Shown piece after piece: positions 1,591 through 28,006 of a DNA stretch of 41,682 nt (its first letter is position 1; the number at the start of each line of letters is the position of its first letter). Position numbers and translations under genes: made by a program. Source of the DNA: an uncultured Bacilli bacterium (GTDB taxonomy: Bacteria; Bacillota_I; Bacilli_A; RF39; UBA660); contig CANQQK010000002.1 in the NCBI GenBank assembly GCA_947626015.1, positions 1-41,682 of the forward strand, written 5' to 3'. The notes below the pieces were generated by a model. It did not search any database, was not told the DNA's origin, and saw only the letters and a list, made by a program, of their open reading frames with translations.

Positions 1591-3693
1591 TTAATTATCA
1601 AAGGAGAACACAATATTATCTTTATCAAGTTTTAATTTAGCAGCAAACATCTTACCATTCTTCGAAGTAAAGCCTTCGATTTTCGAAGTAACACCATCAT
1701 TTAAAAGAAGGATGGCATTTCTTTTTGATATGACCCGATTACAAATTGTGGTATTGATCTTAAATTTACAATTCTTATAATCACTACATCCATAACTAAA
1801 ACGGGTTTTAATAACATCTTTACCACATAGTGGACATTTACCGATAACATCACCATAGAAACCAGTATCGGTATCGGTTTCTAGAGGTTCCTCTTTAATA
1901 TTAAAGACCTCTTTAATTTCATCCTTTGCTAAGGATACAGCATCATCGATACTCATCTCATCATGATATACTTTCTTCAATGCTTTACCCATTTCACTGG
2001 TCTTATATTTATCCATATTGATCTTCATTTGTTTCATGGATTCGATTAAAAATTCACCATTAGGTAAGATGGTATAAACATCCTTTTTAAGTAAAATATA
2101 TTCACTCTTACGAGCATTATCGATGATGCCCGTACGCGTAGCTTCGGTACCTAATTCCAAACCTTCGAAGATGGCTTTATAATCTTCAGTATCATCTTCA
2201 TATTCACTACCTTCTAATTCCTTTTTATCATCTTTAAAAGGATTTTTAAGATAGTTATTTAAGGTTTCAATCGTATAGTGTTTTGGGGGTGTGGTTTCCT
2301 TTTCTTTAGGTACAAAATGGATATTAACCTTATCCCCTATATTGAGATTAGGTAAGATCTTATCCTTCGTACTAGCTTCACTAAATTTGGTCCATCCTGG
2401 TACTAAGATGATATTACCCTTTAGATTAAATTCTTCTAAGTCCCCGACTTTGATCTTGATCTCGGTCTTTTCAACTTCACATTCTTCACTACAGAATACC
2501 GCTACGAAGCGTTTGATAACGGTTTGATAAACCAAGAACTCCTCTTCCGTTAGCTTAGCTTTATCGGGTATTTTATAGGTTGGTGTTAAAGCTGAGTGGG
2601 ATTCAATCTTGGAATCATCAAAGATGGTTTTCTTATCCTTAAACTTAACGGGATAACCGATCTTGGCAATATTATTGATGATGGTTTTGATCTTATCCTT
2701 TTCGGCGGTTGCTAAGTATTCCGAATTGGTACGAGGATAGGTAAGATATCCACTTTCATAAAGCTTTTGCGCGATATCCAAGGATTTATCCATCGGCATC
2801 TTATATTTCTTTCCTAAATAGTTTTGGAGCTTTGTTAAGGAGAAAAGTTTAGGGGGATTCATGACATCCTTCTTGACCTTTTTATCCGTTACAATAGCTT
2901 CACTAGCATTATATTTTTGACATAGTTCTAAAGCTTTATTTTGCTCCTTTTTGTCAAACTTCTCCTTGCTCGTAAGTTCGATTTCTTCTCCATTGGTCAC
3001 TTCATTGCTCCAAAGGCCATAATAGATATCGGGTTTAAAGTTACGAATCGCCATATCCCGGTCATATATGGCTTTAACGATTGGTACGATAACCCTTCCC
3101 ACCCTTAAAAGGGTGCCGGTCTTAAGAGTCGCATAGCGCGTAAGATTAACCCCATAAAGCCAGTCGATAAAGGTCCTTGCAAACCCTTCATTAGCAAGAT
3201 TATCATAATCACTATCATCTTGCATCGTCTTTAAGCCCTCCCTAATGGTCTCAGGTGTTTGATCTGGAAGCCAAAGTCTTTTAATCGTCTTATCCGTCTT
3301 CAATGCATTTTGAATACATAAACGAATGATAACCTCACCTTCACGGTCAGCATCACCAGCATTAACGATTACTTTTACATCTTCCCTATTACAAAGGCTT
3401 TCAATGATCCCAAATTGTTTTTTAACTCCCGTATCAACCTCTTTAGAAGTACTATCTTTCTTAAGATTAAATTTAAACTTCTCGGGAAAACAAGGAAGAT
3501 TATCCAACTTCCAACGATAATCCGTAACATTCTTCTCATAATCTTCGATATCTGCTAAAGTAAAAAGATGTCCAAAAGCCCAACTTACCAAGTATTCATC
3601 ATTCGAATAGAAGCCATCATTTTTTTTCATATTTCCGATCGCACTAACGATGTTTCGCGCAAGAGATGGTTTCTCGGCAATAATCAAAATCAT
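1591..3693 (-). CDS. topB: DNA topoisomerase III (type IA) with C-terminal zinc-finger
   Basis: 700 aa. Toprim start MILIIAEKPSLARNI and the DADREGE acidic cluster are present, followed by a type IA core. C-terminal CPLCGKDV...CSDYKNCKF forms a zinc ribbon. GGAGG SD precedes the ATG. Confidence 0.9.
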   Translation of the reverse strand: MILIIAEKPSLARNIVSAIGNMKKNDGFYSNDEYLVSWAFGHLFTLADIEDYEKNVTDYRWKLDNLPCFPEKFKFNLKKDSTSKEVDTGVKKQFGIIESLCNREDVKVIVNAGDADREGEVIIRLCIQNALKTDKTIKRLWLPDQTPETIREGLKTMQDDSDYDNLANEGFARTFIDWLYGVNLTRYATLKTGTLLRVGRVIVPIVKAIYDRDMAIRNFKPDIYYGLWSNEVTNGEEIELTSKEKFDKKEQNKALELCQKYNASEAIVTDKKVKKDVMNPPKLFSLTKLQNYLGKKYKMPMDKSLDIAQKLYESGYLTYPRTNSEYLATAEKDKIKTIINNIAKIGYPVKFKDKKTIFDDSKIESHSALTPTYKIPDKAKLTEEEFLVYQTVIKRFVAVFCSEECEVEKTEIKIKVGDLEEFNLKGNIILVPGWTKFSEASTKDKILPNLNIGDKVNIHFVPKEKETTPPKHYTIETLNNYLKNPFKDDKKELEGSEYEDDTEDYKAIFEGLELGTEATRTGIIDNARKSEYILLKKDVYTILPNGEFLIESMKQMKINMDKYKTSEMGKALKKVYHDEMSIDDAVSLAKDEIKEVFNIKEEPLETDTDTGFYGDVIGKCPLCGKDVIKTRFSYGCSDYKNCKFKINTTICNRVISKRNAILLLNDGVTSKIEGFTSKNGKMFAAKLKLDKDNIVFSFDN

Positions 3694-3780
3694 GTTTTAC
3701 CTCCATTCTTTTCCTATCTAAATTATATCATATCTTCCTATAATACTTATACATTATTAACTTTCATTTTACTTCTAAAA

Positions 3781-3811
3781 ATGATAAAAACCATAGGTTT
3801 ACCTATGGTTT
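3781..3811 (-). terminator. Rho-independent terminator after yukD/esaB
   Basis: Stem AACCATAGG (3789-3797) pairs with CCTATGGTT (3802-3810) around a 4-nt loop. A U-run follows on the minus strand. The hairpin overlaps the stop codon. Confidence 0.65.
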
Positions 3812-4070
3812 AATATAATACTAATTTCGTTGAATTTCTTATCGTTGTATCGATTATTAGTTTATTGGGATCATATTCTTCACCAGTTCTTTGATTAACA
3901 AGTAAAGCATTAGGATTGATCTTATAGGAAGCAGCTACGGTTTCTTGAATTGCTTTTTGTAACATGAATGTTACATAAGCAACGGTTTTAGTAGTTGGTA
4001 TATAAACATCTAATACTCTTTCAACATCCGTAAATGTTACAGATATTAAAACCGAATAATCTTTATTCAT
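3810..4070 (-). CDS. esaB: YukD/EsaB-like small ubiquitin-fold T7SS protein
   Basis: 86 aa, with start overlapping the essC stop (TAATG). SD GAGGAGGAAGAG lies inside the essC 3' end. Size, position and the beta-grasp-like C-terminal pattern (LIIDTTIRNSTKLVLY) resemble YukD/EsaB. Assignment rests on context and pattern only. Confidence 0.6.
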   Translation of the reverse strand: MNKDYSVLISVTFTDVERVLDVYIPTTKTVAYVTFMLQKAIQETVAASYKINPNALLVNQRTGEEYDPNKLIIDTTIRNSTKLVLY

Positions 4071-7000
4071 TATAACTCTTCCTCCTCTTCCTTAACATCT
4101 TCAATAACCTTTAATTGTTTACCAATACCACTCTCAACGATATAACCAATATCATCAGGTACACCTTGATTAGGTACTCTAATATCAGTCTTAATAACAT
4201 CTAAGAATGATTGTTCTTGTAAACCATTACCGATCCATAAACCATTTAGATTTTGTCTTAATGGATTGATCCACATCTCACCACCGACTTCTCTAACATT
4301 ATTAAAGGTATCGATCATGATGAACGTAATCGTCTTTAATTGTAAAGCATTTAAGATAGCTTGATAGAATAACTCAGAAGTCTTAGCATCTAATGCGGCA
4401 GCAAATTTGGTAAGTTTCTTAATGAAGATATAGGTATGATCCTTTTGATATGGATCCTCTTTAGGATTAAATTTCTTCATCTCTTCTTCAGTATACACAT
4501 ATAGATTTTGCACTACGGTATCGATATCGCTAGATATATAAGCAATATTTTCATTAGTAAAGTATTCATCATATACTTGATCAGGATCGAAGAAATAGAT
4601 CATTTCATTACTACTTAAAGAGTTAATCATTTGACAGATATTACGCGTTGTATCTTCAATCATATCAGCATTCTTACCCATATAGATGAAAGCCATTTCC
4701 TTTTTGAAGTTAACAAATTCCGTTTTAATAGTAAGCGTACGCATACCAACTGGGAACTTCTCCATTGAAGAAAGCAATGGTTTCATTTGTTCATAGGTTA
4801 CGAACTCTGGAATATATGGTACTGAAGGTACCTTTAACTTATAAGCATCGAATAAGACTTTATTTAAGTTCTTAATCGTATCATTGATTTGATCTTCATT
4901 AACTGGTATTGCTCCTTGGAATTCATAGACGGTTCCATCTAATTCCATAATACCACGGCATTTACCATCAGCTGGTGTTATCTTCGTATTCAAGTAATCA
5001 CGATAGTCTTCATCTTTTTCACAGTTTAGAGCAATCGTATAATTCATACAATCACCTAACTTAAATGGTAACTTAGCTGTATTAGTAATGATTAATGATA
5101 TACCATATTTAACACATTCACGTGCTAGGAATAATAAGGTTTCAAAGTGAACTTCAAAGTTTTCCATGAATGCTTGATAGTTATTAATAATTATTAAAAT
5201 TCTTGGTAATCCTTGACCACTTTGTTTAATATATTGATCATAATTACCACCAAATTCATTGAATAAATCCTTACGAACACGCATGGCATTTAAAACGAAT
5301 TTGAAGATACCATCGATCTTATCAACATCAGAGGTTGATGTATAATTACCAACGATTGGGTTTTGATCAAAGACTTTTAAGGTTTCGGCACCACAATCGA
5401 TGATATAGACATTGATCTCTTGTAAACTATAGGTTGTTGCTAAAGAGTATAGGATGGATTGTAAGAATAATTCCTTACCTGCTCCAACCTTACCATAGAT
5501 AGCAATATTACCTTTAGAAGATATTGGTAATGTATATACATTTTGGGATTGCGTATATGGATTATCGTATTCACCAGCTACAGGTTCAACAAAATAGTTT
5601 TGTTTTTGGAAATTATATTTCTTTTTAATATTATCGATATAGATAATATCTGGGATACGATCTAGCCATAATCTTCTTGGATGAATATTCTTTTTCTTAG
5701 CAAGTTCATCAACATATTTGATGATATTTAATAATTGTTCACCAAGATTTTGTTGATTTTGTTGAGCTGCTAATTGTTCATTGGTCATGAAGGTTGCGGT
5801 ATGGATTTCGGAACCAACATTATTGATGATATGAATATCGGTATCGATTTCCTTTTTAACAACTTCACTTGGAACATATTTATAACCAGCATATGCTGAT
5901 TGACCTAAGCCATAGAATTCATTATTACCTACTTGAAGATAGAAGGCACCTGTATTCTTAAGATATGCGGCATCACTAGTTTGAATCATATCTTTGGAAT
6001 CAGCAGTATCTTGAACACGTAATGCTACTTTGAAACGAGCATTGGACCATATTTGGTCGGTAACAACACCACTTGGTTTTTGGGTTGCCAGAATCAAGTG
6101 AACACCTAAGGAACGTCCGATACGTGCTGTAGAAATCAATTGATCCAAGAACTCTGGTTGTTGACTCTTTAACTCCGCAAACTCATCGGAAATGATGAAT
6201 AAGTGTGATAAAGGTTCTTCAAGCAATCCCTTACGATAGAAGTCTTGATATTTCATAATGTTCATGGAACTATCCTTTAACTTTTCACGAGCTTCATTAA
6301 ACATTCTTTGACGACGTTTTAACTCCGCTTCGATGGAAGCAATACTTCTTCGAATTTCTGATTTATCAAGGTTGGTAATCGTACCAACTAAGTGGGGAAG
6401 ACGAATACCTAACTCGGAGTTTTCAAAGGATCCCGCAAGACCTCCACCTTTATAGTCGATAAGAACGAATTGAACTTCATCAGGATGGAAGTTAACAGCT
6501 AAAGATAGGATATAGGTAATAATCCACTCTGATTTACCAGATCCGGTAGTACCTGCTACTAGTCCATGAGGTCCATAAGCTTTTTCATGGGCATCCATCA
6601 TGAATAAATCACCATTTTGATCGATTCCTACCGGAACGGATAATGAGGTAACGATTGGACTATTCTTCCATCTTTCCAAAGAGTTTAATTGCTCAATCTT
6701 ACCAACATTATACATATCCAAGAAACTGATGGATTTTGGTAATTCAAATTTACCCTTTTCAACTTCGATTGGTATATTAGCAAGTCTTTCAATACAACCA
6801 TTCATATCGATCTTGGTATTAAACTCCGCAGCAAATTGTTTTTGCGTTCTCGTTGATAACGTATTACCAAATAAACCACTAATCTTTTCATCGATATTGA
6901 TGAAGGTTGAAACTTGACTTGGTAAATTCGAAATACGATCATTCTTAAATAATATCGTAAAACCATAATTATTTGGGGTATTTAAAACATGTTTAACGAT

Positions 7001-8701
7001 ATCAACATTACGACATAAAGCTAGATCATCAACGATAATAAGATAATATGGTGTAAACTTTTGGAAAGTTGTATCACGTTTATTTTCTTCACTAGATTGA
7101 TCATTTTTATCTTCTTTACAAGCTTCAATACGATTATTTAAAACACTATCCAAGTAATTAGAAATATATTTAATTTCATCGATGCCACATCCAAAGAAAC
7201 GAATCGTCTTTTGATCATCCCAACAATGGATTGATCCCTTTAAATAATTCCAATTACTACTCTTCTTATCGTTCGTAAATAAGACAACCTTTAGTTCGGT
7301 ATAACTATGAAAAGTAAATAATTGTAATAATAAACTATTGATAAAACTTTGCGTTAACATCGTCGCACCAATAGCAGCTACAAATCGATTATCAGCTAAG
7401 GATAAGTTCAAAGGAACATTTTCCATAACACGATTCTTGTTTACTAAATCACGAACCTTTTCTACTAAGGCATTTTCATCGATACCAAATTCTTTTTCTT
7501 CAAAAGATATCTTGGTTTGGGGTTCAACATTACCAATACCTAAACGAACGGTTAAGAAATCTTCATGACTATTGGTACGTTCCCAAAGATTACGTTTCTT
7601 GGTATAGATAATATTTTGACATTCTTCCAAAGAGGTATTGTTTTCCTTAGCAACTTGAATCTCTTTACCAATCTCTTCATTGATCTCTTTTTCTTTACGA
7701 GCAAGATATTTTTCATATTGTTTAATAGCTTTATATTTAGCTTTCGCAGCTTCTCTTCTTTGATAACGACGCGTTAAGGCTGGCCATAGGAATGATGAAG
7801 TCATCGTTAATGCCGTCGTAATAATACTTGGTAAGGCAGACTTTAAAGTCGCTTGTCCGGTAGCAACGTTATTCAAAGTCGTCATCAACATGACACCACT
7901 GGTAAGCATCATCGTCATTTGGGGACCAATCGTTAAGATAGCTGGTTGCGTTCTTTGCTCACGGGCTTGCGGTGGTGCCGCTAATTTAAACTCCTTAGGT
8001 TCAACAACGGTATTGAATCTTGGTGCTCTTGAGAAATTATCTTCAACTTTATATAGTTTTCTTTCGGTTTCTAATTCATAAACATTATCTGCTAAAACAA
8101 CATTTATTTGTTTCGCAGCAAAGATACTTTGATTTAATTTTAGAGGTATTTTAGGTTGCGTATTGATAATGATCAACTTATCACATATTGGTATAATCTT
8201 TAAACCATGTAAGAAGATGGTATCACCATGTAATAAAACTTTCTTCTTTATTTGGACATCATTAACATAGCAGAATCTATCCATGGCTTCGATAACCCAA
8301 ACATTATTCTTATAGGTTAAGATAGCATGGTTATCCTTTACTAAGTTTGATCCATAACAGATAGCTTGTCCACTACCACTACCAATGGTAATCTCATTTT
8401 TATTAAATGTTAAGATATATTTTGTATCGATATAAGTAGGATAACAATAGACATAATATAATTTATTTTCTTCATCACTGATCGTAAAAAAGGAGCTATC
8501 TTCCAAAGTAGCTGTCGTTGATTCAACACCATTAAAGTTTAGTTTTCTTCCCTTATTAGCTAAGACGTTCCATTGACCATCTTTTTCAAAGATAGTAGCT
8601 AGAACTTCATTACCTTCATCATAAATGCAATAGTTTCCTGATATGTCTTCAGGTAGATACAGTTTACGGCTTTTTACACCATTTAAAATTACCAATATCA
8701 T
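4070..8701 (-). CDS. essC: Type VII secretion ATPase EssC/YukB (FHA N-terminus, 2 TM, three FtsK/SpoIIIE P-loop domains)
   Basis: 1543 aa. The N-terminal ~190 aa are FHA-like repeats, and hydrophobic segments lie around aa 255-310. D1 Walker A is GLVAGTTGSGKSE with the DEFAEL Walker B region. D2 has YGKVGAGKE, and the third domain is degenerate. SD GAGGTGG precedes the start. Confidence 0.93.
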   Translation of the reverse strand: MILVILNGVKSRKLYLPEDISGNYCIYDEGNEVLATIFEKDGQWNVLANKGRKLNFNGVESTTATLEDSSFFTISDEENKLYYVYCYPTYIDTKYILTFNKNEITIGSGSGQAICYGSNLVKDNHAILTYKNNVWVIEAMDRFCYVNDVQIKKKVLLHGDTIFLHGLKIIPICDKLIIINTQPKIPLKLNQSIFAAKQINVVLADNVYELETERKLYKVEDNFSRAPRFNTVVEPKEFKLAAPPQAREQRTQPAILTIGPQMTMMLTSGVMLMTTLNNVATGQATLKSALPSIITTALTMTSSFLWPALTRRYQRREAAKAKYKAIKQYEKYLARKEKEINEEIGKEIQVAKENNTSLEECQNIIYTKKRNLWERTNSHEDFLTVRLGIGNVEPQTKISFEEKEFGIDENALVEKVRDLVNKNRVMENVPLNLSLADNRFVAAIGATMLTQSFINSLLLQLFTFHSYTELKVVLFTNDKKSSNWNYLKGSIHCWDDQKTIRFFGCGIDEIKYISNYLDSVLNNRIEACKEDKNDQSSEENKRDTTFQKFTPYYLIIVDDLALCRNVDIVKHVLNTPNNYGFTILFKNDRISNLPSQVSTFINIDEKISGLFGNTLSTRTQKQFAAEFNTKIDMNGCIERLANIPIEVEKGKFELPKSISFLDMYNVGKIEQLNSLERWKNSPIVTSLSVPVGIDQNGDLFMMDAHEKAYGPHGLVAGTTGSGKSEWIITYILSLAVNFHPDEVQFVLIDYKGGGLAGSFENSELGIRLPHLVGTITNLDKSEIRRSIASIEAELKRRQRMFNEAREKLKDSSMNIMKYQDFYRKGLLEEPLSHLFIISDEFAELKSQQPEFLDQLISTARIGRSLGVHLILATQKPSGVVTDQIWSNARFKVALRVQDTADSKDMIQTSDAAYLKNTGAFYLQVGNNEFYGLGQSAYAGYKYVPSEVVKKEIDTDIHIINNVGSEIHTATFMTNEQLAAQQNQQNLGEQLLNIIKYVDELAKKKNIHPRRLWLDRIPDIIYIDNIKKKYNFQKQNYFVEPVAGEYDNPYTQSQNVYTLPISSKGNIAIYGKVGAGKELFLQSILYSLATTYSLQEINVYIIDCGAETLKVFDQNPIVGNYTSTSDVDKIDGIFKFVLNAMRVRKDLFNEFGGNYDQYIKQSGQGLPRILIIINNYQAFMENFEVHFETLLFLARECVKYGISLIITNTAKLPFKLGDCMNYTIALNCEKDEDYRDYLNTKITPADGKCRGIMELDGTVYEFQGAIPVNEDQINDTIKNLNKVLFDAYKLKVPSVPYIPEFVTYEQMKPLLSSMEKFPVGMRTLTIKTEFVNFKKEMAFIYMGKNADMIEDTTRNICQMINSLSSNEMIYFFDPDQVYDEYFTNENIAYISSDIDTVVQNLYVYTEEEMKKFNPKEDPYQKDHTYIFIKKLTKFAAALDAKTSELFYQAILNALQLKTITFIMIDTFNNVREVGGEMWINPLRQNLNGLWIGNGLQEQSFLDVIKTDIRVPNQGVPDDIGYIVESGIGKQLKVIEDVKEEEEEL

Positions 8702-8828
8702 GTTGCCACCTCTATTATTATCTATTATCTTAATTATACAATACTAATGTATATATTTTCAATAAAAAAGGAGAATTTGTATAAAAGATTATTGATTATG
8801 ATATAATGGTATTAGGAGGTTTATAAGG

Positions 8829-9155
8829 ATGGCTGTAGATGTAAATTCTTTAACTGTCGAAAATATTACGCCAGAAATAATGGCGCAAATGGGACCTAGT
8901 GAAATTGCGGCTTTTAAAGCTAAATTAACACCCGAACAAATACAAAGTTTAGCAGATAAATTTGGAGGATCACAAGTGGCTCCACCTGAGGATGCCGGTG
9001 CTACTCCAGTAAATGCAAATCCAAGCTTTGTCGTATCACCAGCAGAGGTTCAACAAATGGCCGAAGCTAATGCTTCTGCTGCAGCCCAAGCTGCTACGAC
9101 TAATAAGGGAGCACCTAGTGAACAAAAAGGGCCAATCACTTTTGGTAGAAAGTAA
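8829..9155 (+). CDS. Small Ala/Pro/Gln-rich protein of unknown function, divergent from essC
   Basis: 108 aa with AGGAGG SD 9 nt upstream and an extended -10 (TGATATAAT) upstream of that. A perfect hairpin terminator follows the stop directly. The gene is visibly GC-richer than its neighbours. No family recognised. Confidence 0.6.
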   Translation: MAVDVNSLTVENITPEIMAQMGPSEIAAFKAKLTPEQIQSLADKFGGSQVAPPEDAGATPVNANPSFVVSPAEVQQMAEANASAAAQAATTNKGAPSEQKGPITFGRK

Positions 9156-9181
9156 AAACACATCACGTGATGTGTTTTTTA
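9154..9181. terminator. Bidirectional rho-independent terminator
   Basis: AAAAACACATCACGTGATGTGTTTTTT is a perfect palindrome flanked by an A-run and a T-run. It sits between the convergent 8829-9155 (+) and 9179-10564 (-) genes. Confidence 0.8.
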
Positions 9182-23365: not shown

Positions 23366-23614
23366 ATGACCTTGGTGAACACTATGAATGACACTGAGAA
23401 AATATTAGAAGTATTAAATCAATTAAGACCTTACTTAAATAGTGAAGGTGGCGATATAGAATTTATTAAATACGAAGATAATTACGTATATATTAAATTA
23501 TATGGAGCTTGCGCTAATTGTGGATTTAGAGATTATACGATTCAAGATAATATCTATGAAGCTATTAAAGAAGAGGTTAAAGATTGTAAAGGGGTTATTA
23601 ATGTAGAGCTATAA
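23366..23614 (+). CDS. NifU-like (Nfu C-terminal domain) Fe-S cluster protein
   Basis: 82 aa. LRPYLNSEGGDIEFIKYEDNYVYIKLYGACANCG carries the CxxC of the NifU C-terminal domain (B. subtilis YutI-like). Confidence 0.85.
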   Translation: MTLVNTMNDTEKILEVLNQLRPYLNSEGGDIEFIKYEDNYVYIKLYGACANCGFRDYTIQDNIYEAIKEEVKDCKGVINVEL

Positions 23615-23617
23615 GCT

Positions 23618-24487
23618 CTACTTTTTTAACCATTCTATTTGATATATATTATAATCGATATTCATTCTTGAAAGCAATTCTTTCAAGAATTTTTCATATC
23701 TAGGAATTAGATCAATTATTTTTAGTAATTCATTCATATCGATGATATCTTCCATATATTCATCTAAGCGATCGAAATAATAACTAGGATATAAAAGTCT
23801 TGCTATTAAGATATTTACTTCTTCATTAGAATAATTACTCTTTAAGATATAACGATATTCTTTATCAACATTAATATCTTCTTTAAATACTTTATTCTTT
23901 AGATATTCCGAATAATCTCTTATTCGGTAATCAATAATCATTTCTGTAGGATCATAATACTTTAAATAGTTAAAGGGATATTCTACTCTTTTATGAGCTA
24001 ATACTCTTTTTAAATTAACATTATTATTTTTTAAACGATTTGCTATTTGAATAGCATTTTCACTTAAACCACTATAATAATTAAAGACACTTAAAAATAA
24101 TAAATCTTTATTATTTTTACAATGTAATAAATCAGCATAGTAATCGAGTCTTTTGGTCCATATATCAGCAATAGCAATATTATGAAAATCATATTCTAAT
24201 CCTTGAAAATCATACCATTTATCCTTTAGAGAATAATCAATCTTTAATAAAACATAGTTTTTATTTTTATAAGTACTTATAGGTACTCTTTTATGATTTA
24301 AAACAATATTATGATAACGAATATGATAATTATTTAAAATCTTAATATTTTCATCTAAGAGATCTTGTTCAATATCTAATCTTTTAAAGAGATAGAGATC
24401 ATTATTATATCTTAGAATACTTTCATAATCGTTTTCTTTTTCGATATCAAAATAGACATTATAATAGTAATATAATATTTGTTTCAT
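23618..24487 (-). CDS. CotS/YutH-like (kinase-fold) protein with degenerate catalytic loop; tentative
   Basis: 289 aa. VLAHKRVEYPFN...MIIDYRIRDYSEYL resembles the HGDxxxxN...IDFD...D motifs of the CotS/APH fold, but with HKR in place of HGD. Spore-related genes are neighbours. Confidence 0.35.
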   Translation of the reverse strand: MKQILYYYYNVYFDIEKENDYESILRYNNDLYLFKRLDIEQDLLDENIKILNNYHIRYHNIVLNHKRVPISTYKNKNYVLLKIDYSLKDKWYDFQGLEYDFHNIAIADIWTKRLDYYADLLHCKNNKDLLFLSVFNYYSGLSENAIQIANRLKNNNVNLKRVLAHKRVEYPFNYLKYYDPTEMIIDYRIRDYSEYLKNKVFKEDINVDKEYRYILKSNYSNEEVNILIARLLYPSYYFDRLDEYMEDIIDMNELLKIIDLIPRYEKFLKELLSRMNIDYNIYQIEWLKK

Positions 24488-24497
24488 ACTATATAAT

Positions 24498-24525
24498 ATA
24501 AAAAAAGAGCATTTTTATGCTCTTT
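24498..24525 (-). terminator. Terminator after the 527-aa gene
   Basis: AAAGAGCAT (24504-12) pairs with ATGCTCTTT (24517-25). A U-run follows on the minus strand. Confidence 0.7.
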
Positions 24526-26107
24526 AATTGGTTTGATTATTAACTGGTAAAGAACCAGGTCCTAAGACAGTATTAGGATTCGTAGTACCAGCATTATAAT
24601 TATTTGGTAATGTTACAGGAATACCAGAAGGATCACTATTAACATAAGCATTGCTTACACGAGGAGTATCTGGTATTGGTTCCGGAACAGGTATTTCCGG
24701 AACAGTTTGAATAGCATCCAAATTGATTAGATTATTAGCACCAACTTCTGCTGTAGCATTTTCTACAGGAGCTGGAGTTTCTTTAGCTACCATATCATTG
24801 ATAGCATCTACTCCCATATTAATGAAATTATCACTCGTAGGTGTTGCAGCAGCAGGTTGTGGAGCTGCTGGAGTGTTTGCTTCAGGCATAGGCGCTGGTG
24901 TAGTTGGAGCACTTGGTGTTGCTGGCGTTGCTACTGGAGCAGTCGGAGCTTCCGCAACTGGTGCGTTAGTTTCCGGAATTGGTACTGCTGGTGTATCATT
25001 AACTGGAACACTTGGTGCTACTGCTGGAGCTTCGGCAACCGGAGCGCTTACTTCAGGTGTAGGTACAGCTGGAGTTTCAGCAACTGGTGCGCTTACCTCA
25101 GGTGTTGGTACTGCAGGAGTATCAACTACTGGAGTTGGCTCCGGAACCGCTGGAACATCTTGTGCTGGTGTTGGTTCCGGAACTGCTGGAGCATCTGGCT
25201 CTGTTGGAGCAACTGGAGCAGCTGGAGTTTCAACCACAGGTGTACTCATCGTTTCGATATTTTCACTAGCAGGTGTTAGTTCTAGTGGACTTCCATCTTG
25301 CATTATATATTGTTTAATAGTTTCGATTGCTTTTAGAGCATCCTCTTTCGTCACCTTATCACTAGGACTTGCCATAACTTCCGTTATGGGTTCAGGTGTC
25401 GTAGGTGCTGAGGTTGGCTCTGGCGTCAATACTGGAGCGGCTTGCATTACGGATGCGCTAATTGGATCTTGAGCCACCGGAGCACTTGGCGCTACTGCCG
25501 GAGCTTCCGTAACTGGTGCTGCTGGTGTTTCTGGAGCAGCTGGAGCAACCGTTTGTGCCGTTAGATCAGGAACCATTGGATGTTCAAAAATACTTTCACC
25601 ACCTGTCGGAGCAGCTGGTGCAGCAGCTTCTGTTGCTGGAGCACTATCACCTACTACCTCACTATTGAAGAATCCTCCAGCACTTGGAGCATTTTGAATA
25701 GCTGGGGTGTCTGGTGCAGTATCTTGAGCATCATTCAATGTTTCCATATTATATTTATCATTTAATGTTTGAATTAAATCGGCTTTAACAGCTAACTTCT
25801 TGGGAATACCTATATTTAAAGGAATAGAGTTTAAATCAATATATTTGATATCGGGATTAATTTCACCATGGGAAATACCATTTAATGTTGTTTTAATATG
25901 TAACCATTCTTCATCGGTTATCTTATCTAACTCTCCAACATTCGTACCTAATTCACCAACATACATCTTGGTTAAATTATTATCAACGATTTCATTTAAA
26001 GTATATAATACATATTTTTTTCCACTAGAAACAAACTGAATGCATGATATACCTTCAGCAACAATACTATTACCGTTTTTATCTATAACAGTTATATTAT
26101 TATTCAT
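24524..26107 (-). CDS. DUF1292-like N-terminal domain fused to ~400 aa Pro/Ala/Thr/Val-rich repeats
   Basis: The N-terminus ITVIDKNGNSIVAEGISCIQFVSSGKKYVLYTLNEI...ITDEEWLHIKTTL fits the DUF1292/UPF0473 pattern. The remainder is PAxP low complexity with an exact tandem TPAVPTPEVSAPVAE x2 (aa 330-359). Confidence 0.5.
   Translation of the reverse strand: MNNNITVIDKNGNSIVAEGISCIQFVSSGKKYVLYTLNEIVDNNLTKMYVGELGTNVGELDKITDEEWLHIKTTLNGISHGEINPDIKYIDLNSIPLNIGIPKKLAVKADLIQTLNDKYNMETLNDAQDTAPDTPAIQNAPSAGGFFNSEVVGDSAPATEAAAPAAPTGGESIFEHPMVPDLTAQTVAPAAPETPAAPVTEAPAVAPSAPVAQDPISASVMQAAPVLTPEPTSAPTTPEPITEVMASPSDKVTKEDALKAIETIKQYIMQDGSPLELTPASENIETMSTPVVETPAAPVAPTEPDAPAVPEPTPAQDVPAVPEPTPVVDTPAVPTPEVSAPVAETPAVPTPEVSAPVAEAPAVAPSVPVNDTPAVPIPETNAPVAEAPTAPVATPATPSAPTTPAPMPEANTPAAPQPAAATPTSDNFINMGVDAINDMVAKETPAPVENATAEVGANNLINLDAIQTVPEIPVPEPIPDTPRVSNAYVNSDPSGIPVTLPNNYNAGTTNPNTVLGPGSLPVNNQTN
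24950..25120 (-). repeat. Coding tandem repeat (45-nt unit, TPAVPTPEVSAPVAE) with a third degenerate copy
   Basis: Read from the translation, aa 330-386. Confidence 0.7.
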
Positions 26108-26154
26108 ACTTATTCCCCTTTATTCCCATTCTCTTATAAAATTATATCACAATA

Positions 26155-26427
26155 TTACTTCTTTTCAAGCAAGAAATACTTGCAATCATAAGCACAATTT
26201 TCTTTAATATAACGATCTAAATTCTTGATATCATTTAAAGGTTTTACATTCTTGTTATCGCTCTTATAAAAACCTTTAATTCTTACTTTACCATAAGCCC
26301 AATCACCAAATATATAATCATATCCATTAAAGTAATCGGTTACTTTTTCTTTAACGACTTCACTATCAAAGCCGTCTTTATAATTCTTACTTACTTCATA
26401 TTCAATATCATTTAATACTATCTTCAT
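26155..26427 (-). CDS. yutD: YutD-like protein (DUF1027)
   Basis: 90 aa. YEVSKNYKDGFDSEVVKEKVTDYFNGYDYIFGDWAYGKVRIKGFY...CAYDCKYFLLEK matches the YutD family pattern as I recall it. Confidence 0.7.
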   Translation of the reverse strand: MKIVLNDIEYEVSKNYKDGFDSEVVKEKVTDYFNGYDYIFGDWAYGKVRIKGFYKSDNKNVKPLNDIKNLDRYIKENCAYDCKYFLLEKK

Positions 26428-26431
26428 GTCC

Positions 26432-27247
26432 TCACCTTATTATTGATGCTATTACTAAACCAATCATTATTTCTGTAGTTATAATACTTAATAACATTAG
26501 TTTATCAACGAAACCATTACCCGTTGTTAATACAATCTTATCTCTTCTTTTAAATAATGGTTTCTTTTCATAATCATATACTCTATTCTCTTCTTCGATA
26601 ATCTTAGCATTTATTAGGTCAATCTCTTCTGATGATAATAACGCTACCGTTTTAATATCTAAACCACATCTACTATAGCGATTAGGATCCAAGAGATTAG
26701 GATTGATCGCCATAATTCTTAATTGGGTGTTAGTAAGTCCATACTTACTATCTTCCCATTTCTTAATGATCAAACCATCATTGGATTTTACTAAAGCTTT
26801 TAATTGCTTTAATTCCCCTTCTGATGGATTAAATATAGTATCGAATTCTAATATCTCTTCTTCAGTAAAACTCTTTCTCTTAGAACGTTTATCGATCATA
26901 TCGATAATGATTCTTTCTATCTCAGATATTAAACCTGCTACTTTCTCATGTGATTTATACTTACGCATAAAGAGATAATATTGATTTAAATATTTAATAA
27001 AATCTAACATTTCACTCTCTTTTAAATCATACATCAAAAGATTACATTCAAATGCTCTTTCATTATCGATACGATATGGAAGTAAGATTGACTTCTCTCC
27101 ATAGATTATCGTTAATGCCTTAATAACAGACATTTCAAATGTATAACAACGTTCATATTCCCCGTTTTCTTTATAACTCATGTATGACTTAATACCATAC
27201 TCAATAGCTGGATTAATAAAATACTTTTCTACATATCGGTATTCCAT
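26432..27247 (-). CDS. Hypothetical protein with C-terminal TM anchor
   Basis: 271 aa with hydrophobic C-terminus LMLLSIITTEIMIGLVIASII. No family recognised. Confidence 0.45.
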   Translation of the reverse strand: MEYRYVEKYFINPAIEYGIKSYMSYKENGEYERCYTFEMSVIKALTIIYGEKSILLPYRIDNERAFECNLLMYDLKESEMLDFIKYLNQYYLFMRKYKSHEKVAGLISEIERIIIDMIDKRSKRKSFTEEEILEFDTIFNPSEGELKQLKALVKSNDGLIIKKWEDSKYGLTNTQLRIMAINPNLLDPNRYSRCGLDIKTVALLSSEEIDLINAKIIEEENRVYDYEKKPLFKRRDKIVLTTGNGFVDKLMLLSIITTEIMIGLVIASIIR

Positions 27248-27298
27248 ATAGTCACCTACTATAACAATAATAACATAATTAATACAATAATTCTAGTG

Positions 27299-28006
27299 TC
27301 AAGCAATGTCCATAATACTTGACGTATTCTTGTAATTACCATTGTAAATACTAGGTACTTTGCCATTGATAACCTTAGAACCTAAAACCATTCTAAAATC
27401 TCTTTTTAACATTTCTTCCTTATAAGGCATAATAATCTTTTGTTCTAAAGATATCGTTAAAGTAACATTTAATAAAGCATTATTAATACCATAATCGATT
27501 ACTTCGGTTTCAATATTACCTAAAACATGTTCATACATACTTATCATAATCGGTATTCTTGCTCCTAAATAAGAAAATAATACCCCTGGAGCGGCATATC
27601 CAAGGGGTATTAAAAGATATAAATTATTATTATAACTATGTAACTCACGATTATTAGGGGTATTACTTATATTACCATTTTCTAAAGCAAATATATTATC
27701 TTGAATATTATCAATAATACCTTTCATAATGTCATATGCTTCATTATAATTGGTTTCAACATAGATAATCTCTTGATCATCATTTAAATATATATTGATA
27801 AGATCATCGATATCATTCTCTGGTAAGATATTCTTCTTAATAATTAAGGTATTGATTTCTTCCGTTTTAGCAACAGCAATATCGATGATCTTAGGAGATA
27901 TATTCTTATTATAGAAATGTAACATAATAAGCGTTACGATAATAATTAATAATATTATTAAATCTAAATGTTTACCTTTAATACTTTTCGTCTTAAACCT
28001 TTTCAT
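27299..28006 (-). CDS. yunB: Sporulation protein YunB
   Basis: 235 aa with an N-terminal TM segment. IPLGYAAPGVLFSYLGARIPI...YGINNALLNVTLTISLEQKIIMPY...GKVPSIYNG parallels B. subtilis YunB (IPLGQ...LGPKIPV...YGINNALIDI...GEVPQFYNG). Confidence 0.8.
   Translation of the reverse strand: MKRFKTKSIKGKHLDLIILLIIIVTLIMLHFYNKNISPKIIDIAVAKTEEINTLIIKKNILPENDIDDLINIYLNDDQEIIYVETNYNEAYDIMKGIIDNIQDNIFALENGNISNTPNNRELHSYNNNLYLLIPLGYAAPGVLFSYLGARIPIMISMYEHVLGNIETEVIDYGINNALLNVTLTISLEQKIIMPYKEEMLKRDFRMVLGSKVINGKVPSIYNGNYKNTSSIMDIA

Follow-up and report, generated by a model that had tools for sequence, protein, structure and literature searches.

Can a secretion system of type VII (T7SS) of the Firmicute kind, T7SSb, be built around its membrane ATPase and a ubiquitin-like partner where none of the usual membrane components is found beside them? 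This question is raised by a locus in a stretch of 41,682 nucleotides from an uncultured Bacilli bacterium (GenBank assembly GCA_947626015.1, contig CANQQK010000002.1, positions 1 to 41,682 of the forward strand), the whole of which we call the window. The gene for the secretion ATPase EssC is followed here by a gene for a small ubiquitin-like protein (Ubl), and EssB, EssA and EsaA are not detectable in the window locus nor in the related loci that were annotated or scanned. A first-pass annotation of this DNA had taken the pair for a stripped-down T7SSb. Its EssC is indeed of T7SSb type and the canonical partners are not detected, yet the locus is better seen as a further subtype akin to T7SSc-j (PMC11217815). 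In our judgement the region is fairly probably the engine of a functional T7SS belonging to an as yet undescribed subtype. The essC-ubl unit consists of the following features.

4070..8701, minus strand: essC, a 1543-aa membrane ATPase with N-terminal FHA-like domains, two transmembrane segments and three P-loop domains
3810..4070, minus strand: ubl, an 86-aa ubiquitin-like protein of YukD/EsaB type (TsxB-like), lacking a C-terminal Gly-Gly
8762..8733, minus strand: sigma-70-like promoter upstream of essC (TTGAAA-18-TATAAT, 11/12 matches)
3811..3788, minus strand: intrinsic-terminator-like hairpin directly past the ubl stop (10-bp stem with 4 GC pairs, then a T-run)

The window EssC scored 947.4 bits over residues 222-1533 against TIGR03928 (T7_EssCb_Firm, an equivalog model with a cut-off of 778.4), versus 54 bits against the FtsK model, whose cut-off is 1566. 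Pfam recognised FtsK_SpoIIIE (3.5e-42) and, at residues 104-162, FHA (7e-6). The chain has two hydrophobic stretches, beginning at residues 254 and 290; Walker A motifs were located at 717 (GTTGSGKS) and 1070 (GKVGAGKE), the third P-loop site being degenerate. The FHA region, transmembrane segments and three P-loop domains that the first-pass annotation had read from the translation were therefore all recovered, the last of the three with a degenerate Walker A. The closest solved structure is that of Bacillus subtilis YukB (9QKS_G, 6.6e-116); as its alignment starts only at residue 181, the FHA region of the window EssC has diverged beyond the reach of phmmer. In the second FHA domain, the phosphothreonine-binding Arg and Ser are replaced (GS for GR, KDNHA for SxxH). 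Degenerate phosphothreonine-binding FHA residues have been reported for the EssC of T7SSb (PMC11217815). Judged by its sequence, the window EssC is a real, full-length protein of T7SSb type.

The stop codon TAA of essC and the ATG of ubl share one base (TAATG) and the junction reads TTATAATGAAT; ubl is translationally coupled to essC through this overlap. A Shine-Dalgarno sequence, AGAGGTGG, lies ahead of the essC ATG and downstream of the promoter-like site. With its predicted promoter, Shine-Dalgarno sequence and terminator, the essC-ubl pair reads as a transcription unit of its own. It had been claimed that essC is the first gene after its own promoter and Shine-Dalgarno sequence, that its stop overlaps the start of the 86-aa gene and that a terminator follows at 3781-3811; the reading frame, both signals and the overlap were all seen, and the coordinates proved right throughout, to within a few bases in the case of the terminator.

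An overlapping or abutting essC-ubl pair recurs in about 20 further loci, all from gut and rumen Bacilli metagenomes and uncultured Bacilli. These were reached through species-representative genomes (L002-L005), through look-ups of members of the Ubl family (L006-L012 and L063-L067) and through a metagenome scan (L013-L015, L019, L048, L049 and L055). The identity of their EssC to that of the window ranges from 86% (L002) through 57% (L003 and L004) and 42% (L005) to 36-40% (L006-L009). Housekeeping genes flank the related loci, whose contigs reach 325 kb; among these genes are proS, secG-rnr-smpB, murG-murB, acpP and tilS, rplM-rpsI and lon. In the comparison with L002, the ratio of nonsynonymous to synonymous substitution rates (dN/dS) came to 0.078 in essC and 0.020 in ubl; the gene of the zincin-like protein described below had a value of 0.20, and those of the small proteins had values of 0.24-0.33. 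Thus essC-ubl is a conserved pair under strong purifying selection, which speaks strongly against a decaying remnant. Moreover, Ubl is far more conserved than EssC (99% versus 86% identity with L002, at a dN/dS of 0.02), which fits an intimate structural role.

Between positions 1 and 29005, the window has 23 non-nested open reading frames (ORFs) with a length of 80 aa or more, and 21 of them were scanned with Pfam and NCBIfam, the latter collection including models for EssB, EssA and EsaA. The two ORFs outside the scans (22948-23304 and 23366-23614) are small and far from the island; in addition, NCBIfam left out 26155-26427, which is YutD-like by Pfam, and Pfam left out topB. Among these ORFs there was no match to YukC/EssB, EssA, EsaA/YueB or WXG100 at E<=0.1, and a check by size found no ORF of about 1000 aa with several transmembrane segments, as expected of EsaA/YueB, in the island. 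The scans therefore agree with the statement that EssB, EssA, EsaA and a canonical EsxA with a central WxG are missing from the window ORFs. A 289-aa ORF at 23618-24487 was considered as an EssB-like pseudokinase and rejected, since it is a homologue of YutH/CotS-like spore-coat kinases (TIGR02905, 3e-10) in a yutD-yunB sporulation neighbourhood.

The same picture was obtained from the relatives. The YukC, EssA and EsaA families are not represented among the precomputed Pfam matches in 11 related loci (within 10 kb on either side or to the contig end), Pfam scans of ten flanking proteins in L005 gave no canonical T7SSb membrane component, and NCBIfam searches of the unknown neighbours in four related loci gave no T7SSb component. 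A 1039-aa neighbour in L010 was tried as an EsaA and rejected, having no EsaA match and one hydrophobic segment. The comparison of synteny thus returns the essC-ubl layout over and over, and no canonical partner in the 12 loci that were annotated or scanned. In L012 the cluster between acpP and tilS holds only a WXG-like gene, essC and ubl. Across the wider clade, the constants are EssC, Ubl and WXG-like proteins only.

The assignment of Ubl rests on its fold and on its family. A first search gave 9 close homologues, and a profile search of 1.84 billion representative proteins extended the family to 225 representatives at E<=1e-3, nearly all of 83-86 aa. A PF08817 (YukD) match was found in 13 of 90 family members at E<=0.01, the best relative reaching 4.2e-5, and the remaining weak Pfam matches of family members are to ubiquitin-like families. 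An initial AlphaFold2 model, built from a 10-sequence alignment, had a pLDDT of 59 and was kept out of the fold search. The model from an 80-sequence alignment reached a pLDDT of 93.7 with a beta-beta-alpha-beta-beta order, and Foldseek placed it in the PDB next to ubiquitin, NEDD8 and other ubiquitin-like proteins (E~5e-6, TM-score 0.63-0.77). Profiles A1 and A3 of the family gave nothing significant against PDB sequences, the best being the ubiquitin-like domain of ubiquilin-2 at E=0.67. We confidently predict a ubiquitin-like beta-grasp for the product of 3810-4070, as had been expected of it. The C-terminus reads KLVLY and has no Gly-Gly; on account of this fold and this ending, Ubl is taken as a divergent protein of YukD/EsaB type (TsxB type). 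The earlier label "YukD-like" is accordingly upheld by the fold and by the transitive PF08817 matches, and not by direct sequence search.

Next to essC-ubl lies an operon that runs on the minus strand from 15460 to 9179 and encodes the first eight proteins listed below; the ninth lies further away, beyond thrS and a tRNA cluster.

14534..15460, minus strand: 308-aa polytopic DUF5684 protein (PF18936, 5e-8, above cut-off) that has an acidic linker and, at the C-terminus, a zinc ribbon (CxxC...CxxC)
13549..14325, minus strand: 258-aa putative effector with a C-terminal SleB-like cell-wall hydrolase domain (Hydrolase_2, 2.9e-5; TIGR02869, 1e-3)
12297..13487, minus strand: 396-aa soluble protein, conserved in position, with no family match
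11789..12217, minus strand: 142-aa protein, probable start Met7, with an extra C-terminal WFG helix
11437..11763, minus strand: 108-aa helical-hairpin protein with an NFYSP turn and no Pfam match
11008..11355, minus strand: 115-aa helical-hairpin protein of WXG100-like layout, with NFYD instead of WxG and a charged C-terminal tail
10617..11003, minus strand: 128-aa protein seen only in the closest relative (a 54% identical ORF in L002), with no family match
9179..10564, minus strand: 461-aa membrane protein (zincin-like) with a conserved N-terminal cytosolic domain of about 75 aa, one transmembrane segment and an extracytoplasmic domain
18695..21094, minus strand: 799-aa Gly/Ser/Thr/Asn-rich low-complexity protein, with a local GC of up to 49%

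In most relatives, one to eight genes of the same strand, for proteins of about 100-160 aa, follow ubl. Several of these small proteins have a central WxG and weak matches to WXG100 models (PF06013, 1.9e-5; TIGR03930, 7e-7), all below cut-off. In the window, L003/L004 and L002/L066/L067, the small helical genes stand in the neighbouring operon and not directly after ubl. As they follow ubl directly in most relatives, the isolated two-gene operon of the window is a local rearrangement. A hidden Markov model of the relatives' WxG proteins matches the 142-aa protein with E=3e-4; for the orthologue in L002 the value is 8e-6. The 142-aa protein carries a degenerate "EDY" turn where that model has WxG, and it is the best candidate for the equivalent of EsxA/TsxA. 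The 115-aa and 108-aa hairpin proteins are paralogues, and in an alignment their NFYD and NFYSP turns line up with WFYGP of proteins from L003, and the turn of the 115-aa protein also with VWxG of proteins from L005. Degenerate WXG100-like proteins are therefore present, and the statement that there is no canonical EsxA is true only literally; as members of WXG100 itself they are candidates, confirmed neither by curated models nor by a profile search of the PDB.

Larger proteins share the same helical modules. At its N-terminus the 258-aa protein shares homology with the 142-aa protein over the C-terminal half of the latter, without the first helix, and orthologues occur in L003 and L004; it could be an antibacterial effector or a hydrolase assisting secretion, like EssH of Staphylococcus aureus. 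The 799-aa protein ends in about 100 residues that share 70% identity with the 108-aa hairpin protein (11437-11763), and L003 encodes two similar proteins of 723 and 360 aa. We regard it as a probable T7SS substrate with a reverse, that is C-terminal, targeting domain; this "reverse" domain order is known from TslA-type substrates (cited in PMC11217815). The 396-aa soluble protein contains about ten repeats of around 13 residues, "(H/Y)AGGDAxP(L/I)xE" (in short "AGGDAxPL"), and Tandem Repeats Finder reported no tandem repeat at the DNA level. Its N-terminus is similar to ORFs at the same position in L003 and L004, and it may be a T7SS substrate as well. What had been described as a two-gene minimal core thus stands as a unit but not as a two-gene system, the adjacent operon supplying WXG100-like hairpin proteins, effectors and recurring membrane proteins.

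Two membrane proteins of the operon come into question for the places of EssB, EssA and EsaA. The 461-aa protein spans the membrane at residues 76-94, with basic residues before this segment and a lipobox-like LSGC at its end; in the closest subclade the segment likewise ends in a lipobox-like L(S/T/V)(G/A)C. In the alignment H242, E243, H246 and E276 are invariant, corresponding to an HExxH motif followed by a Glu about 30 residues later, the putative third zinc ligand of a zincin metallopeptidase. Pfam matches to peptidase families are weak (Peptidase_M78 at 0.012; MPTase-PolyVal at 1e-3 in L005) and the profile of the family had no match in the PDB. The homologue search gave 12 clusters, all unannotated. 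Homologues adjoin essC in L002-L007, and 50 more were collected from the metagenome scan. Copies that have the N-terminal domain and enough flanking sequence lie beside essC-ubl in all 14 informative loci besides the window. In homologues without this domain, which start with a signal or anchor sequence, essC was found in 0 of about 34 loci. This distribution suggests that the N-domain is a T7SS-specific module. Among the homologues without it, a 396-aa zincin paralogue (L020-L047, for example L033 at 9683-10873) is widespread in human-gut metagenome contigs; it has a signal or anchor start and is not linked to essC.

The other candidate is the DUF5684 protein. DUF5684 genes with a zinc ribbon occur in four essC loci (the window, L003, L005 and L063), and a plain DUF5684 gene lies directly upstream of essC in L064. 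Neither the zincin nor DUF5684 was found in L008-L012 and L065. The alternative already voiced in the first-pass annotation, that unrecognised proteins of the operon at 9179-15451 replace the missing components, gains real support from the recurrence of two membrane proteins with essC, although neither of them is universal.

How does this set compare with the systems already described? Like the T7SSb of S. aureus (Ess) and B. subtilis (Yuk/Yue), it has an EssC with N-terminal FHA-like domains, two transmembrane segments and FtsK-type ATPase domains, a separate small Ubl without Gly-Gly encoded beside essC, and small helical-hairpin proteins together with larger effectors bearing helical targeting domains. 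Unlike in T7SSb, no EssB/YukC pseudokinase, EssA or EsaA/YueB is detectable in the window locus or in the related loci with annotation or scans, the FHA region of EssC cannot be aligned to that of YukB by phmmer, and the N-domain zincin and the DUF5684 zinc-ribbon protein are candidates with no known place in T7SSb. The Ubl resembles YukD/EsaB (PF08817; PDB 2BPS, 9QKS) in its beta-grasp, its length of about 80 residues, its lack of Gly-Gly and its gene abutting essC. It differs in its sequence, and also in its setting: YukD of B. subtilis promotes the association of YukB with YukC, whereas no YukC is detectable at the window locus.

All that the T7SS subtypes a-j have in common is an ATPase, a Ubl and a protein of the WXG100 kind, each subtype having its own set of accessories (Garrett, Higginson & Palmer 2024, PMC11217815), in a survey that searched RefSeq only. 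The window system follows the logic of T7SSc-j, a triad of TsxC ATPase, TsxB Ubl and TsxA WXG100 protein (here a candidate) with subtype-specific accessories, and is like them in its effectors with small partner proteins and "reverse" domain order; T7SSg has also been called "relatively simple" (PMC11217815). Nonetheless, the accessories of T7SSc-j, namely the Ser/Thr kinase TsxD, the PPM phosphatase TsxF, the DUF6382-FHA protein TsxJ, the Ig-like giant TsxI, the EspG-like chaperone TsxG, the DUF5050 propeller TsgL and the AAA+/TadZ protein TsfV, are absent from the Pfam matches of the window ORFs and from the listed neighbours in the relatives, a comparison made through family matches. Conversely, neither a metallopeptidase nor DUF5684 is mentioned in PMC11217815; the window ATPase has FHA domains, unlike those of T7SSc, g and h; and the hosts of the window system are uncultured Bacilli. 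The system thus fits the T7SSc-j pattern, matches none of those subtypes, and looks like a further, undescribed one. We found no paper describing an essC-ubl arrangement without EssB, EssA and EsaA, and literature searches on DUF5684, on T7SS in Erysipelotrich* and on subtypes beyond j gave nothing relevant.

A mechanism can be outlined by analogy. In B. subtilis, the FHA domains and the DUF domains of YukB hold YukD between them and bury about 30% of its surface (PMC12637312). Ubl would probably clamp the FHA and DUF domains of EssC in the same way, and by holding the protomer in an assembly-competent conformation it would probably stabilise the form that oligomerises into a channel. EssC would then assemble into hexamers and export the hairpin proteins as dimers, along with cargo bearing related helices. 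In the adjacent operon, the hairpin proteins, WXG100-like but degenerate, are the probable substrates; larger cargo with the same helical modules, such as the cell-wall hydrolase and the Gly/Ser-rich protein with its C-terminal targeting domain, probably travels with them. The FHA domains of EssC are retained though diverged and some partner is therefore implied; the best candidates at the locus for this place are the N-domain of the zincin and the DUF5684 protein. These lineage-specific membrane proteins, the zincin and the DUF5684 protein with its zinc ribbon, may stand in for EssB, EssA and EsaA as scaffold or in spanning the envelope. The ectodomain of the zincin could process substrates or remodel the envelope, a role analogous to that of the mycosin MycP in T7SSa, which is likewise protease-like, anchored in the membrane, extracytoplasmic and encoded together with the secretion ATPase. 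The analogy is functional only and implies no homology, as MycP is a subtilisin with a C-terminal anchor, unlike the window protein with its HExxH motif, N-terminal cytosolic domain and transmembrane or lipobox anchor.

The immediate surroundings of the unit were largely as first described, with topB as the gene downstream and a small divergent gene upstream.

1591..3693, minus strand: topB, the next gene downstream of ubl (TIGR01056, 2e-120)
8829..9155, plus strand: divergent 108-aa Ala/Pro/Gln-rich protein, the upstream neighbour of essC
9154..9179: palindromic, bidirectional terminator-like hairpin (11-bp stem) between the divergent 108-aa gene and the end of the upstream minus-strand operon

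The divergent 108-aa protein has no transmembrane segment and no Pfam or NCBIfam family match; its gene has a dN/dS of 0.33 against L002, and homologues adjoin essC in L002, L003, L004 and L066/L067. It could be a regulator or a substrate. Near-identical strains differ in what lies between ubl and topB: no gene in the window (3693-3810), an ABC transporter and a 339-aa gene in L066 (10493-13349), and in L067 two further small genes of 112 and 216 aa (10349-14274). This variability resembles the variable effector and immunity regions downstream of essC in T7SSb.

As for the host, the window belongs to a metagenome-assembled genome of an uncultured Bacilli and is low in GC, about 25-37% outside a few low-complexity genes. 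A sporulation-type neighbourhood lies at 23618-28006 on the minus strand (YutH/CotS-like kinase, YutD-like protein, YunB), and teichoic-acid genes, assigned by eye from their translations, occupy 30-41 kb. The presence of both indicates a walled, probably spore-forming lineage of Bacilli and not a wall-less Mollicute. The minus-strand gene at 24524-26107 encodes a 527-aa protein in which a small N-terminal domain, with a weak match to PRK13678, precedes a long Pro/Ala/Thr-rich region. Two tRNA clusters, at 18268-18543 (3 genes) and at 21946-22855 on the minus strand (10 genes), flank the 799-aa gene and a 138-aa ORF (21279-21695, plus strand). Rfam recognised tRNAs only: there was no rRNA, and no T-box reached the threshold upstream of thrS (17056-17552).

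Several observations weigh against a working system of a new subtype. Everything said here about function, secretion included, we infer. The window Ubl itself has no YukD match in Pfam or NCBIfam at E<=0.1, where only noise was returned (Bac_DnaA_C and DUF2604, E~0.09), and aligning its family with the single B. subtilis YukD sequence in hhalign gave an insignificant probability of 3.5%. The small helical proteins of the window reach no WXG100 model of Pfam or NCBIfam at curated thresholds, a further difference from T7SSb, and their profile met only coiled-coil and haemagglutinin noise in the PDB and no WXG100 structure. The zincin was not detected in the more distant loci L008-L012 and L063-L065, DUF5684 was seen in only 5 lineages, and many of the contigs with N-domain-less zincins are near-identical human-gut ones and so stand for fewer independent lineages than their count, though the association of the N-domain with essC is clean even so. 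Finally, the scans covered the window and the related loci and not whole genomes, so that EssB, EssA and EsaA may sit on other contigs.

This last point leads to the view that we are dealing with an ordinary T7SSb whose locus is split, with EssB, EssA, EsaA and EsxA encoded elsewhere in fragmentary assemblies. The sources are metagenome assemblies throughout; the score of EssC is that of a T7SSb equivalog, and the protein keeps the FHA domains that bind the pseudokinase YukC in B. subtilis (PMC12637312). Such a split is nonetheless improbable in our estimate: characterised T7SSb loci cluster these four genes with essC (PMC11217815), the annotated or scanned loci, bordered at each end by housekeeping genes and found on contigs as long as 325 kb, hold no such gene within 10 kb on either side, and the FHA region of EssC does not align with that of YukB. 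A somewhat better case, though still an unlikely one, can be made for EssC, Ubl and the WXG-like proteins being the whole machine, with the zincin and DUF5684 proteins as effector, processing or immunity factors or as unrelated neighbours. It is consistent with the essC-ubl pair and small helical genes being all that is constant across the loci, with the three-gene cluster of L012, with clusters lacking membrane-protein Pfam matches in L008, L009 and L065, and with the patchy distribution of the zincin noted above. Yet the perfect adjacency of the zincin N-domain to essC would be difficult to account for if the zincin were just an effector, the FHA-like domains, docking sites for a partner in T7SSb, are conserved in EssC, and unknown transmembrane proteins do adjoin essC in some distant loci, for example L011. 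That the locus is a decaying remnant, or an FtsK-like ATPase serving a purpose other than secretion such as DNA transfer, we consider very remote indeed. The partner genes missing from the locus and the degenerate third Walker A would agree with it, but the ORFs are intact, the translational coupling is conserved, the dN/dS values are those of constrained genes, the ATPase matches the EssC equivalog and not FtsK, and essC-ubl co-occurs with WXG-like and effector-like genes.

The reading that we prefer is thus a secretion engine of a new subtype. A broader version of it can be put forward only tentatively and falls short of being probable: that a large clade of uncultured gut and rumen Bacilli runs a naturally minimal T7SS, in which an FHA-bearing EssC, a Ubl clamp and WXG-like substrates suffice for export with no pseudokinase, EssA or EsaA, and that one subclade recruited new membrane parts in their place, a zincin with an EssC-docking domain, in a mycosin-like role, and a DUF5684 protein with a zinc ribbon.

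The passage of T7SSb substrates across the membrane is still an open question, as is which components it truly needs. The cryo-electron microscopy work of 2025 obtained no hexamer and assigned to YukD the coupling of EssC to the pseudokinase YukC. A widespread natural variant with the FHA domains of EssC and a Ubl but without YukC/EssB, EssA and EsaA would point to a primary role of the Ubl on EssC itself. Moreover, reconstitution would have a compact set to work with, of 3 to 5 genes, and the catalogue of T7SSa-j would gain a further subtype with unprecedented candidate parts. For the organisms that carry it, abundant uncultured Bacilli of the gut, the locus points to competition or wall remodelling by means of the T7SS.

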